The translations under genes were made by a program, and so were the position numbers. Shown one piece after another: positions 39,891 through 59,814 of a stretch of DNA of 64,000 nucleotides (within the stretch, counting starts at the first letter, position 1; every line of letters begins with the position of its first letter). The stretch comes from Escherichia coli. GTDB lineage: Bacteria; Pseudomonadota; Gammaproteobacteria; Enterobacterales; Enterobacteriaceae. The stretch lies in the NCBI RefSeq assembly GCF_013315695.1, contig NZ_CP054353.1, one strand, 5' to 3'. The notes below the pieces were generated by a model. That model worked only from the letters and a program-made list of their open reading frames with translations, ran no database searches and was not told where the DNA came from.

Positions 39891-39908
39891 TGTGTCAGGG
39901 CTGGCACA
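39891..39908 (+). promoter_or_regulatory. TGT-N12-ACA activator site (Ogr/Delta-type) of a Psid-like late promoter
   Basis: TGTgtcagggctggcACA centred about 80 nt upstream of sid ATG. Confidence 0.45.
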
Positions 39909-39980
39909 TCTGCAATGCGTCGTGTTGTTGTCCGGTGTACGTCACAATTTTCTTAACCTGAAGTGACGAGGAACCGGAAA

Positions 39981-40715
39981 ATGTCTGACAACACCATCCC
40001 TGAATATCTGCAACCCGCGCTGGCACAACTGGAAAAGGCCAGAGCCGCCCATCTTGAGAACGCCCGCCTGATGGATGAGACCGTCACGGCCATTGAACGG
40101 GCAGAGCAGGAAAAAAATGCGCTGGCGCAGGCCGACGGAAACGACGCTGACGACTGGCGCACGGCCTTTCGTGCAGCCGGTGGTGTCCTGAGCGATGAGC
40201 TGAAACAGCGCCACATTGAGCGCGTGGCACGCCGGGAGCTGGTACAGGAATATGACAATCTGGCCGTGGTGCTGAATTTTGAACGCGAACGCCTGAAAGG
40301 GGCGTGTGACAGCACGGCCACCGCCTACCGGAAGGCACATCATCACCTTCTGAGTCTGTATGCAGAGCATGAGCTGGAACACGCCCTGAATGAAACCTGT
40401 GAGGCGCTTGTCCGGGCAATGCATCTGAGCATCCTGGTACAGGAAAATCCGCTCGCCAACACCACCGGCCATCAGGGCTACATCTCACCGGAAAAGGCTG
40501 TCATGCAGCAGGTGAAATCATCGCTGGAACAGAAAATAAAACAGATGCAAATCAGCCTCAGCGGTGAGCCGGTTCTCCGGCTGGCCGGACTGTCAGCGGC
40601 AACACTCCCGCACATGGATTATGAGGTGGCAGGCACACCGGCGCAGCGCAAGGTGTGGCAGGACAAAATAGACCAGCAGGGAGCAGAGCTGAAGGCCAGA
40701 GGACTGCTGTCATGA
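39981..40715 (+). CDS. sid: Sid-like external scaffold / capsid size determination protein
   Basis: 244-aa product from MSDNTIPEY; first gene of sid-delta-psu order. Confidence 0.7.
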   Translation: MSDNTIPEYLQPALAQLEKARAAHLENARLMDETVTAIERAEQEKNALAQADGNDADDWRTAFRAAGGVLSDELKQRHIERVARRELVQEYDNLAVVLNFERERLKGACDSTATAYRKAHHHLLSLYAEHELEHALNETCEALVRAMHLSILVQENPLANTTGHQGYISPEKAVMQQVKSSLEQKIKQMQISLSGEPVLRLAGLSAATLPHMDYEVAGTPAQRKVWQDKIDQQGAELKARGLLS

Positions 40716-41212
40716 TTTACTGCCCGTCGTGTGGACATGTTGCTCACACCCGCCGCGCACATTTCATGGACGATGGCACCAAGATAATGATTGCACAGTG
40801 CCGGAATATTTATTGCTCTGCGACATTTGAAGCGAGTGAAAGCTTTTTCTCTGACAGTAAAGATTCAGGAATGGAATACATTTCAGGCAAACAGAGATAC
40901 CGCGATTCACTGACTTCTGCCTCCGGCAGTATGAAACGCCCGAAAAGAATGCTTGTGACCGGATATTGTTGTCGGAGATGTAAAGGCCTTGCACTGTCAA
41001 GAACATCGAGGCGTCTGTCTCAGGAAGTCACCGAGCGTTTTTATGTGTGCACGGAGCCGGGTTGTGGTCTGGTGTTTAAAACGCTTCAGACCATCAACCG
41101 CTTCATTGTTCGCCCGGTCACGCCGGACGAACTGGCAGAAAGCCTGCATGAAAAACAGGAACTGCCGCCAGTACGGTTAAAAACACAATCATATTCGCTG
41201 CGTCTGGAATGA
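40712..41212 (+). CDS. Delta-like late transcription activator (two Ogr-type zinc fingers)
   Basis: 166-aa product from MIYCPSCGH; two CxxC...CxxC units (CPSCGH...CRNIYC and CRRC...CTEPGC). Confidence 0.75.
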   Translation: MIYCPSCGHVAHTRRAHFMDDGTKIMIAQCRNIYCSATFEASESFFSDSKDSGMEYISGKQRYRDSLTSASGSMKRPKRMLVTGYCCRRCKGLALSRTSRRLSQEVTERFYVCTEPGCGLVFKTLQTINRFIVRPVTPDELAESLHEKQELPPVRLKTQSYSLRLE

Positions 41213-41285
41213 GGGCTGCCGGTTAACCCCGGCCGTCGCCGCACACCGTATTTTTATTCTTCAGCATGATGAGAAAGAGATAACG

Positions 41286-56956: not shown

Positions 56957-57987
56957 CAAGTAAGCTGATAACTATCGAATGTTACTATTTCCTCATCTAG
57001 CCATATGTTTATTTCCTGTAATCTTTTTTGCAACGGTAATAACTCATTACGAACAAATACTTTACTAGCCTTCTCCACATCCCCAAACCCCCCAACATTA
57101 TTCGGCATAATCCCCATCATCTGTGGCGGAACGCGATGTGCTGCCATCATGTCATCCCGGCTCACGTTCTTGATATTTAGAAACTCATCCTTCGCCGCAA
57201 CTTCTGACAAAGGGATGATCTGAAGGCCGTCCTTTTTGCCGTTAGGCGAGTACATAAACAGGTTGCGGAAGTTACCCGGACCTTTGGCACTTTTCATTGC
57301 ATTGCGGAGGTTGTTCACGTCCTCCTGGTTCTGCGCAGCATCGGTCATGTACATGATGAAGCCTGCATGACTACCGTTAATGTAATACTTGCGGCGGAAC
57401 AGCGTGGCGGACTCATTGAGCAGGGCGGACGGAATGGCAGAAAGATAGCCGGGCAGGCCGTAGATCTCCTGGTTAATGTCCGGTTCCATCAGATGAAAAA
57501 TGCTGCCTTTCGTGAACTGATATGGCTGCGTGGTCATACCGTATTGCACAAACCAGTAGGTATCCAGGTCTAACCCGCGTCGGGTGTATTTTGCCAGGGC
57601 AGGTTCAAGGGCGATAACTTCACCGAAGCGGTTCGTGCGTTTCTCCAGGTAGGCGTTACCAAATACCAGATAGTCCTGCACAAAACGCGAAAAAGCCTGC
57701 TGGCTGAGCAGCGGGTGAGGGATGTAGGTGCTGGTCAGAATGTTGCACTTTACTGCAATCGGGGAACTATGATGAACGGCAGCGCGGAAGGTGCGCGCCA
57801 GTCCGTCAAAGCTGACGGGCGGCTCATACCAGCGGTCCATCTGTACGCATTCCACATAATCCAGCAGTTCTCGGCGGTCCAGAACAGGAACGGGATCGCC
57901 GAAGCTGAATGCTTCGGCTGTAGTTTGACTTTTAAGCTGGATCTGTTTCGTCGCCGCAGCGCGGTTCTTCTTACTCTTTCCCATCAA
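56956..57987 (-). CDS. portal protein (P2 gpQ-like)
   Basis: 343-aa ORF upstream-overlapping terminase gene; P2 late gene order. Confidence 0.85.
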   Translation of the reverse strand: MMGKSKKNRAAATKQIQLKSQTTAEAFSFGDPVPVLDRRELLDYVECVQMDRWYEPPVSFDGLARTFRAAVHHSSPIAVKCNILTSTYIPHPLLSQQAFSRFVQDYLVFGNAYLEKRTNRFGEVIALEPALAKYTRRGLDLDTYWFVQYGMTTQPYQFTKGSIFHLMEPDINQEIYGLPGYLSAIPSALLNESATLFRRKYYINGSHAGFIMYMTDAAQNQEDVNNLRNAMKSAKGPGNFRNLFMYSPNGKKDGLQIIPLSEVAAKDEFLNIKNVSRDDMMAAHRVPPQMMGIMPNNVGGFGDVEKASKVFVRNELLPLQKRLQEINIWLDEEIVTFDSYQLT

Positions 57988-59750
57988 AAAATCTCCACAA
58001 TATTGCTGGTATTGGCGGATTCGCCCTGCAGCGGTTCGTTAAACAGTGCGTGCATCGTTGCCCAGGCCAGATCGGCGTGGCTGGCTTCTTCGCTGCGGCT
58101 GGCTTCATAGGTCGGGCGGTTGCCACTGGCGGTGGTGGCGCGACGGATTGCCATAAAGGACTGCGCTATGTCGGTGTGTCCGGCGTCAAACTCCAGACGG
58201 CGGTGGCTGATAATGTCGTAGGCCTTGAGTACCAGGGCGTTTTTAACGTTGGGGTTGTAGACAAACTCCCGGACGGCAGGAAAAAACGCTTTCACGTTCT
58301 CATAAACCCCGTGACCAACGCCGGTTGAGTCGATACCGATATAGGTCACGTTGTACTGTTCGGTCAGTTTTTTGATGGCGTCAGCCTGGGCGCGGAAGTC
58401 CATTCCGCGCCACTGGTGACGCTCAAGAATGCGGAACTTACCGCCCGGCACGGCTGGCGGCGCCACCACCACGCATCCGGCGCTGTCGCCGTTCTGCGTA
58501 CCTTTCGCCGGGTCATATCCGATCCACACTTCGCGCCAGCCAAACGGGCGCAGGGCCAGTGCATGAAAGTCGGTCCAGACTTCCCAACTGTCCACCATGC
58601 ACGCCTGCAGCTCGCTGAGTGGGAACACAGACGCGAGATCGTCCACGAACTCACACATCAGCAGGTTTTGGTATTCGTCCGGGCTGTACTCCATGCGCAA
58701 CTGGTCGAGGTCGAACAGGTTACAGCCGCCGCGCACCGCATCTTCCACAGTGACTATCTGGCGGTACTGCCCGTCTGCGCACAGCAGGCCGGGGGCCAGA
58801 TTGCTGTGGGACAGGTCGATGTCCACCTTATCGGCTTTGTTGCGCCCTCGGTTGAACAGCGCACCGGACCAGAACGGATAAGCACTGTGTGTCAGGCTGG
58901 ATGGCGTGGAAAAATAGGTTTGTCGCCATTTTTTGTGAATAGCCATACCGGAAGCCACTTTGCGCAGCTCCTGGAATTTCGGTATCCAGAAATATTCATC
59001 CAGATACAGGTTGCCGTGGTAACTCTGGGCCGTGCGGGCATTGGTGCCGAGGAAGTACAGCGTGGCCCCGTTAGGAAGCACCATCGGATCGCCTTTCAGC
59101 TCCACCTCCACTTCTTTGGCGAAGTCGATGATGTACTGCTTAAAGACGTGGGCCTGAGCCTTGCTGGCGGAAAGGAAAATCTGGTTACGCCCGGTTAGCA
59201 GGGCGTCAATCAGGGCTTCACGGGCAAAATAGAAGGTCGCGCCGATCTGGCGTGACTTCAGCAGGTTGCGGATGCGGTTGGTTTTTCCGGCTTCCCACCA
59301 GTGGCGCTGGTAGTTGAACATGGAGGAATGGAAAATTTCTTCCAGCTTCTCAATCTGTTCATCGGTGAAAACGTTCTTTTCCGGCTGACGGCGCGGGCCT
59401 TTGTTGCGGTTGGCGACGTTAGGGTTTAAGTCGGCTTCGTTGCCGCCATTGTTAAACTTGCCGATCCGCGCATGGCGCTCCGACTGGCGCGCCAGCAGGT
59501 CAATCTCTTTGAAATCTTTCCCTTCTTTGTGCTCCTTCATAATGAGCTGGCAGTAGCGTGCGGCGGTGGTGAGCTGCATCTGATCCAGCGGCCCATAGTC
59601 ACCCCACTTGTCGCGTTTTTTCCAGCTGTGAACGGTTGCAACTTTCTCGCCCAGCATTTCAGCAATGCGGGCTACGCGGTATCCCTGAAAGTACAGCAGC
59701 ATGGCCTGCCGACGGGGATCGAGATCTGCGGGTGTCAGTGTGGTGTTCAT
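57984..59750 (-). CDS. terminase large (ATPase) subunit (P2 gpP-like)
   Basis: 588-aa ORF divergent from scaffold gene. Confidence 0.85.
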   Translation of the reverse strand: MNTTLTPADLDPRRQAMLLYFQGYRVARIAEMLGEKVATVHSWKKRDKWGDYGPLDQMQLTTAARYCQLIMKEHKEGKDFKEIDLLARQSERHARIGKFNNGGNEADLNPNVANRNKGPRRQPEKNVFTDEQIEKLEEIFHSSMFNYQRHWWEAGKTNRIRNLLKSRQIGATFYFAREALIDALLTGRNQIFLSASKAQAHVFKQYIIDFAKEVEVELKGDPMVLPNGATLYFLGTNARTAQSYHGNLYLDEYFWIPKFQELRKVASGMAIHKKWRQTYFSTPSSLTHSAYPFWSGALFNRGRNKADKVDIDLSHSNLAPGLLCADGQYRQIVTVEDAVRGGCNLFDLDQLRMEYSPDEYQNLLMCEFVDDLASVFPLSELQACMVDSWEVWTDFHALALRPFGWREVWIGYDPAKGTQNGDSAGCVVVAPPAVPGGKFRILERHQWRGMDFRAQADAIKKLTEQYNVTYIGIDSTGVGHGVYENVKAFFPAVREFVYNPNVKNALVLKAYDIISHRRLEFDAGHTDIAQSFMAIRRATTASGNRPTYEASRSEEASHADLAWATMHALFNEPLQGESANTSNIVEIF

Positions 59751-59796
59751 GGCACAAACCTACAGCCTTGAATGAAGGCTTTCCCCGCCTGCGGTT

Positions 59797-59814
59797 TGTG
59801 TGGTTGTCGGTACA
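59797..59814 (+). promoter_or_regulatory. TGT-N12-ACA late-promoter activator site upstream of scaffold gene
   Basis: TGTgtggttgtcggtACA centred about 88 nt upstream of O ATG in divergent P/O region. Confidence 0.45.

Follow-up and report, generated by a model that had tools for sequence, protein, structure and literature searches.

Ogr/Delta-type late-promoter sites predicted in a P4-type satellite and a neighbouring P2-like prophage of Escherichia coli

In the 64,000-nt stretch of Escherichia coli DNA analysed here (hereafter the window), two palindromic 18-mers are very probably binding sites for activators of the Ogr/Delta/B family, located upstream of activator-dependent late promoters in a P4-type satellite and in a P2-like helper prophage. 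A first-pass annotation had placed them at 39891-39908 and 59797-59814 and proposed that they were Ogr/Delta-type sites. Both were present at these positions, and the assignment agrees with the identity of the first to P4 and with the positional homology of the second to sites of P2 and 186. Reciprocal trans-activation by Delta and Ogr is textbook P2/P4 biology and is already known.

The class of sequences considered here comprises the Ogr/Delta/B-dependent late promoters of P2-family phages and P4 satellites, which have a dyad of the form TGT-N12-ACA or TGT-N12-CCA, a dyad centre about 55 bp upstream of the start, no evident -35 and only a weak -10, and which need both the activator and the C-terminal domain of the RNA polymerase alpha subunit for transcription. 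Ogr-type proteins have been reported to bind inverted repeats centred near -55 and to contact alpha (PMC3152322), and the P2 promoters PP, PO, PV and PF carry TGT-N12-ACA (PMC3931495). Using sites from P2, 186 and P4 as references, we found perfect TGT-N12-ACA dyads at 39891-39908, 39531-39548 and 59797-59814. Scans of 39400-40000 and 59700-59920 returned no sigma-70 consensus promoter, and the former returned no -35 consensus at the sid promoter (Psid). Half-sites were kept and spacers were free in the nine-phage alignment, in P4-like variants and in 30 natural haplotypes. The distance from predicted start to site centre was 55.5 bp for Psid, 54.5 bp for the P4 late leftward promoter (PLL), 55.5 bp for the pP-like promoter and 55.5-59.5 bp for the pO-like promoter of the helper, compared with 55.5-57.5 bp for mapped P2 and 186 promoters.

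The satellite is essentially P4: positions 36000-42022 share 97.4% nucleotide identity with it over 6 kb, and within them 39877-39972, a segment that includes the -10, the predicted start and both motifs of the sid promoter, is identical. To the right of cos the window differs from P4, carrying a NACHT gene and an ssrA-targeting integrase. The Psid upstream activator site TGTGTCAGGGCTGGCACA (39891-39908), centred at 39899.5 or about -55.5 relative to the predicted start, corresponds to positions 9493-9510 of P4 X51522, with the sid ATG (39981) 73 nt downstream. Its TGT, CTG and ACA elements are retained even in P4-like elements whose identity is down to 67-79%, and mutational analysis of the P4 sid promoter is listed as a reference in PMC3152322. 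The -10 read from the sequence is CACAAT (39943-39948, plus strand), conserved as CA(C/G)AAT in P4-likes, which would put the Psid start near 39955 and leave a 26-nt leader to sid. The 'consensus -10' given in X02534 was not adopted; it is an old sequence-only prediction that falls at 39893-39899, inside the dyad.

A second perfect TGT-N12-ACA motif in Psid, TGTCCGGTGTACGTCACA (39929-39946), had been overlooked in the first-pass annotation. It overlaps the -10, is centred at about -17.5 and is identical in P4 (9531-9548); its ACA half is lost in divergent P4-likes, which have CAGAAT there. Julien and Calendar reportedly described in 1995 a second Delta footprint near -18 at the sid promoter, to which this motif presumably corresponds.

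The late operon downstream (39981-41858, plus strand) consists of sid (39981-40715), delta (40712-41212) and psu (41286-41858), whose products share 98.0%, 97.6% and 98.9% amino acid identity with those of P4, respectively. Delta, the cognate C4 zinc-finger activator, is intact (166 aa, two Ogr_Delta zinc fingers in Pfam), and psu matches Pfam Psu. The PLL-sid promoter region was found in 1068 of 5426 complete genomes. In E. coli MSB1_4I the match is 100% over 601 bp; the P4-like element there lies at a tRNA-Leu gene with no prophage adjoining, so the genomic context is not comparable.

The satellite carries a further site, also overlooked previously, upstream of PLL. This site, TGTAAGGCTGCCGGAACA (39531-39548, minus strand), keeps the TGT and ACA of P4 with three spacer substitutions; in the P4-like element of B2C the spacer is wholly different and TGT-N12-ACA is nevertheless retained. 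Judging from the spacing to the site, the PLL -10 is predicted to be CAAAAT (39492-39497, minus strand), within the invariant block AAAATATTCACAAAATA. The predicted start near 39485 precedes the 5' end of an isrK-type RNA (39090) by 395 nt; the reported distance from PLL to PLE is 394 nt. The region upstream of PLL, which bears P2 Cox boxes in P4 (PMC3936717), has diverged in the window and is hypervariable. A search for motifs that this diverged stretch might share with the att flank or the cI-apl intergenic region of the helper found none.

The helper is a P2-like prophage of a Wadgaonvirus/Felsduovirus-like lineage, with immunity of the 186 type rather than the P2 type. Its activator site, TGTGTGGTTGTCGGTACA (59797-59814, centre 59805.5), is located between two divergent genes: that for the terminase large subunit (gpP homologue; 57984-59750, minus strand), which opens the leftward late operon and whose product aligns residue for residue at the N-terminus with P2 gpP and 186 Orf12, and that for the capsid scaffold (gpO homologue; 59893-60726, plus strand), the first gene of the rightward late operon, assigned from the open reading frame list and the annotation of relatives. 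The scaffold ATG (59893) is 79 nt downstream of the site, whose predicted use in both directions, by a pP-like and a pO-like promoter, had been overlooked. The site lines up with the one annotated in P2 (3057-3087) and with the B-protein site of 186 (3798-3817). According to RefSeq, P2 pO and pP share a single activator site whose two starts lie 55.5 bp off on opposite sides, that of pP at 3016, and 186 pV and p12 share a single B-protein site. In all three, the divergent terminase and scaffold genes have one dyad between them. The window differs from P2 and 186 in having a perfect ACA half-site where these have CCA, and similarity to them at the nucleotide level is confined to short motifs.

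Among nine P2-like phages representing at least six genera, TTGTG and CA were invariant in the alignment while the spacer varied, and the scaffold ATG was 87.5 bp away from the centre of the site in the window, in 186 and in SEN8. With the terminase N-terminus as query, IMG/VR yielded relatives of 97-100% identity and no others; these were used for patterns of single-nucleotide variation. In a set of 30 natural haplotypes, variation touches 26 of the 141 columns of the intergenic region but spares all 21 that make up TGT, ACA and the two predicted -10s; within the dyad, none of six half-site columns varies versus three of 12 spacer columns. The predicted pP-like -10, TAGGTT (59757-59762, minus strand), is invariant in these haplotypes and lies 46 bp from the site centre, as does TAGCCT in P2. 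For the pO-like promoter the predicted -10 region is AACCATAAG (59850-59858, plus strand), which has no variable columns in the haplotypes and is conserved in relatives as AA(A/C)CATAAGG, which recurs in the SEN8 pF promoter. The corresponding start would lie at 59861-59865.

The pP-like start is predicted to fall on the first base of the terminase gene, the A of its ATG (59750). This A is exactly 55.5 bp from the site centre in the window and in SEN8, SopEPhi, KP12, ST13phi12.1 and ST512phi13.6, and the P2 distance of 46 bp between site and -10 (TAGGTT or TATGTT) is kept in this lineage. In P2 and 186, on the other hand, the terminase ATG lies 78.5 bp from the centre, leaving a leader of about 23 nt, and in a Yersinia relative the leader is about 48 nt. 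Because the ATG is 55.5 and not 78.5 bp from the centre, no 5' leader is predicted. We therefore suggest tentatively, giving it somewhat less than an even chance, that the terminase-portal late mRNA of the helper lineage is leaderless and begins at its own start codon, so that one symmetric site would drive a leaderless and a leadered operon. There is a precedent in the P2-like family, since the annotated start of P2 pV is the first base of gene V. The centre-to-ATG distance is 57 bp there and 56.5 bp for pV of SEN8, close to that at the terminase gene in the window.

Based on these features, small zinc-finger activators of the Ogr/Delta/B family would bind the 18-mers about 55 bp upstream of promoters that have no -35, and the bound activator would recruit RNA polymerase via its alpha subunit. 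The first 18-mer, in what is essentially a P4 satellite, would be the actual activator site of the P4 sid promoter, and the second would be a single dyad driving both the terminase (leftward) and the scaffold (rightward) late promoters. Since both elements carry the same type of site, Delta could act on the helper and a helper Ogr/B protein on the satellite; satellite Delta would then switch on the helper morphogenetic operons, and helper Ogr/B would switch on sid-delta-psu and PLL. The first-pass annotation had proposed such cross-activation in both directions. Action of Delta on the helper is favoured by the intact Delta, by the shared site type and by the literature, in which P2 and P4 late genes are activated by both Delta and Ogr (PMC8628076, PMC7552001). 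The reverse direction needs a helper ogr/B gene, which lies outside the window and is known here from close relatives alone: no second Ogr-type finger was found within the 64 kb, and 500465-1 and SEN8 encode one after gpD, at a place whose equivalent would be beyond position 64000. Complete relatives have a 72-aa Ogr/B homologue and perfect TGT-N12-ACA motifs upstream of the V and FI homologues. The vB_EcoM-813R9 record represents a truncated prophage. We found no direct test in the literature of activation by P4 Delta in the Wadgaonvirus/Felsduovirus-like lineage.

It is unlikely, but deserves the most weight among the alternatives, that the sites are genuine and yet this pair shows no cross-talk, either because each activator serves only its own promoters or because the two elements are not a functional satellite-helper couple. 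Several differences between the elements point in this direction. The helper cos (55695-55713) differs at five of 19 bases from the satellite cos (42022-42040), which is that of P2; the helper immunity is of the 186 type; the PLL-upstream region with its Cox boxes has diverged; and the helper-type Ogr homologue, as known from relatives, is clearly diverged in sequence from P2 Ogr and 186 B. However, the half-sites are of identical type (TGTGT...ACA) in both elements, the promoter geometry is conserved, and other members of the activator family (B, Pag and NucC) are likewise interchangeable. In addition, Ogr and Delta have been reported to act on each other's promoters (PMC8628076).

We favour reciprocal activation through the late promoters. 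Considering that the cos ends differ at these five positions, the neighbouring prophage may not be the packaging partner of the satellite, and, with the 186-type immunity taken into account as well, productive satellite-helper exploitation between the neighbours is no more than a possibility. As late-promoter logic would be shared without a shared cos, cross-talk could amount to interference rather than piracy.

That both 18-mers are chance palindromes without a regulatory role is highly improbable, although the bare motif is not enriched. TGT-N12-ACA occurs 17 times in the window, compared with 15.25 +/- 4.14 in shuffled sequences, and 33 of 100 shuffles reach 17. At such a chance frequency the motif alone is no evidence, so that the weight falls on position and homology. 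About 0.03 occurrences would be expected by chance in the 142-bp intergenic region, and four of the 17 matches (starting at 39531, 39891, 39929 and 59797) fall in three short late-promoter regions. Other copies occur in coding sequence. The copy at 39793-39810 was rejected as a Delta site; it is built from the type-1 repeats of the P4 ori (GGTGAACAG). That at 59739-59756, which spans the terminase ATG, was judged incidental because its centre is at about +3 of pP and -113 of pO. Against chance, the first 18-mer lies in a sid promoter 100% identical to the mutationally analysed one of P4, and the second is the positional homologue of annotated P2 and 186 sites, with half-sites kept, a variable spacer and a spacing to gene starts equal to that in 186; such conservation effectively refutes the idea.

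It is equally improbable that the helper palindrome works as a site for CRP, or as a small hairpin resembling a terminator (59808-59821), instead of binding Ogr/Delta: TGTG...ACA superficially resembles a pair of CRP half-sites, and CGGTACAAATACCG with a weak T-run behind it was picked up in a terminator scan, but CRP consensus spacing is TGT-N10-ACA and the spacing here is N12, the bases of the hairpin fall within the variable spacer and flank without being kept in relatives, and a terminator between divergent start codons would have no obvious role.

The Ogr/Delta/B reading of the two 18-mers re-identifies the classical P2/P4 trans-activation circuit and involves no new biology; its practical value is in annotation. 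Side points are the predicted leaderless terminase mRNA, the cos mismatch between the neighbours and the hypervariable Cox-box region upstream of PLL. The late-promoter architecture is fixed here both for a common E. coli P4-type satellite and for a Wadgaonvirus/Felsduovirus-like prophage whose promoters were unannotated.

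Both TGT-N12-ACA copies noted in the first-pass annotation, TGTGTCAGGGCTGGCACA at 39891-39908 in the P4-type satellite and TGTGTGGTTGTCGGTACA at 59797-59814 in the adjoining P2-like prophage (the helper), are present at these positions. Across the window the bare pattern has 17 matches, where dinucleotide shuffles give 15.25 +/- 4.14; thus, the motif alone is no evidence, and the weight rests on the location and homology of the two copies. According to published work, Ogr binds to conserved inverted repeats with their centre near -55, from where it activates transcription by contacting the RNA polymerase alpha subunit (PMC3152322); TGT-N12-ACA is present at all four P2 late promoters (PMC3931495); Delta is homologous to Ogr, and either protein promotes expression of the late genes of P2 and P4 (PMC8628076); and P4 is trans-activated by Ogr (PMC7552001). 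With this published mechanism, the proposal that Delta and Ogr activate late genes reciprocally in satellite and helper is correct and textbook knowledge (PMC3152322, PMC3931495, PMC8628076, PMC7552001). The finding overall is therefore already known, its observation confirmed and its interpretation supported; for this particular satellite and helper, we infer the start sites, binding and cross-activation.

Over 36000-42022, the satellite sequence is that of phage P4, with a nucleotide identity of 97.4%, up to the P4/P2 cos sequence at 42022-42040. Its alpha, epsilon, Orf88, Sid, Delta and Psu proteins are all 98-99% identical to those of P4, and Rfam places the C4 antisense RNA (P4 immunity CI RNA) at 38818-38905 and an isrK-type RNA at 39013-39090, both on the minus strand. 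The Delta gene (40712-41212) is intact and encodes two Ogr_Delta zinc fingers; no other Ogr-type fingers were found in the 64-kb window. The satellite differs from P4 to the right of cos, where the slot before the integrase holds a NACHT/STAND gene instead of gop, beta and cII. This gene (42075-44033, minus strand) encodes a 652-aa NTPase with an SNaCT5 C-terminal domain and is probably anti-phage defence cargo. The 402-aa integrase adjoins the last 45 nt of ssrA (45430-45474), which is all that separates the satellite from the helper. The two elements stand in tandem at the ssrA 3' end, with one integrase each (flanks 44037-47271), and the intact copy of ssrA must be located on the far side of the prophage, off the window. 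To the left of the satellite are a tRNA-Met gene (26596-26671), a DUF5507/DUF5508 gene (27428-28882) and a 1557-aa AIDA/pertactin-type autotransporter adhesin (29689-34362, plus strand).

Two further relevant copies of the motif were identified in the satellite. At Psid, the promoter of the sid-delta-psu late operon, the stretch 39877-39972 is identical to P4. The Psid dyad is centred on 39899.5, and from the hexamer CACAAT (39943-39948) transcription is predicted to start near 39955, 55.5 bp from the dyad centre, with a sid leader of 26 nt. P4-like elements that are only 67-79% identical retain TGT, ACA and a CTG within the spacer, while other spacer bases differ. The second perfect Psid copy (39929-39946) overlaps the -10 and is centred near -17.5, and its ACA half is not retained in divergent P4-like elements; Julien and Calendar reportedly found, in 1995, that at P4 late promoters Delta gives a second footprint, near -18. 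The third copy, also perfect (39531-39548, minus strand), fits PLL, the late leftward promoter of P4. With CAAAAT (39497-39492) as the -10 hexamer, the predicted start falls near 39485, at 54.5 bp from the centre of the dyad and 395 nt upstream of the isrK-type RNA 5' end (39090), in agreement with the distance of ~394 nt between PLL and the downstream PLE in P4. The PLL site differs from that of P4 by three spacer substitutions with both half-sites intact, and in element B2C the spacer is wholly different, yet TGT-N12-ACA is retained. Upstream of PLL, the stretch where P4 has the P2 Cox boxes (39549-39620) is the sole strongly diverged part of the control region, the rest being 97-100% identical to P4. 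It differs again in the E. coli P4-like elements C311, B2C and CM2010, and may have adapted to the Cox/Apl proteins of different helpers; a search of the helper cI-apl region gave no motif matching it.

The helper site does lie upstream of the scaffold gene, as first described, but it is bidirectional and serves the terminase side as well. In the RefSeq annotation of P2, a single activator site (3057-3087) serves the divergent promoters pP and pO, with starts at 3016 and 3127, and a single B-protein site (3798-3817) is annotated for p12 and pV of 186; the dyads extracted are TGTGTCAGTGATAAGCCA from P2 and TGTGTGGGCGGTTGTCCA from 186. An alignment of nine phages (the window, SEN8, SopEPhi, KP12, ST13phi12.1, ST512phi13.6, YenM42.18, 186 and P2) over the intergenic region between terminase and scaffold genes showed TTGTG, and CA in the distal half-site, to be invariant, with the spacer free. 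The scaffold ATG lies 87.5 bp from the dyad centre in the window, SEN8 and 186 alike. IMG/VR yielded 30 natural haplotypes, in which 26 of the 141 intergenic columns are variable; these include 3 of the 12 spacer columns, and none falls within TGT, ACA, TAGGTT or AACCATAAG. A promoter scan detected no sigma-70 consensus promoter at either the helper site region or Psid.

The helper starts at 45475 and continues to the window end, encoding an integrase, a 186-type CI, an Apl/Cox-like protein, CII and a replication gene before cos (55695-55713); portal and terminase genes then run leftward, and scaffold, capsid and further genes rightward. Its closest relatives are Escherichia phage 500465-1 (Wadgaonvirus), Klebsiella P2-like phages and Salmonella SEN8 and SopEPhi (Felsduovirus), and no nucleotide-level similarity to P2 or 186 was found in the comparison. 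A 72-aa Ogr/B homologue lies downstream of gpD in SEN8 and 500465-1, and the helper's own copy would lie beyond position 64000; the SEN8 V and FI homologues also have perfect TGT-N12-ACA sites upstream. Between the helper cos and the portal gene, an unassigned 138-aa ORF (55904-56320) directly precedes a gene for a 200-aa TIR-domain protein (56321-56923, plus strand), the latter probably defence cargo.

Adjacency is no proof of a functional satellite-helper pair. The helper has 186-type immunity. Its cos, GGCGTGGCGGGGATACGAG, is that of SEN8, whereas the satellite has the P2/P4 cos 19-mer; the two differ at 5 of 19 positions. Given this mismatch, the neighbouring prophage may be unable to package the satellite.

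On the terminase side, TAGGTT (59762-59757) aligns with the P2 pP -10 TAGCCT (3028-3023), each 46 bp from the dyad centre, and SEN8, SopEPhi, ST13 and ST512 have TATGTT at this position. The P2 pP start lies 7 nt past its hexamer; counted likewise, the start in the window would be 59750, on the A of the terminase ATG. Aligning the terminase with gpP and Orf12 confirmed its N-terminus. This coincidence (59748-59762) recurs in SEN8 (5012-5026). Dyad and terminase ATG lie 55.5 bp apart in the window; the spacing is 78.5 bp for both P2 and 186, and ~103.5 bp for YenM42.18. The candidate ribosome-binding AGG falls within the pP-like hexamer and is absent from the TATGTT variants, and 3 of the 6 bases between hexamer and ATG are polymorphic among the 30 IMG/VR haplotypes. 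An additional perfect TGT-N12-ACA, TGTGGTGTTCATGGCACA (59739-59756), lies across the start codon, with the activator dyad 58 bp away; it reads TGT-N12-CCA in SEN8, and was treated as incidental, its position being unsuited to activation. The predicted start on the terminase ATG, together with the precedent of P2 gene V, whose annotated start coincides with its own first codon, suggests that the terminase-portal mRNA would be leaderless in this P2-like helper lineage, as opposed to the ~23-nt leader of P2 and 186.
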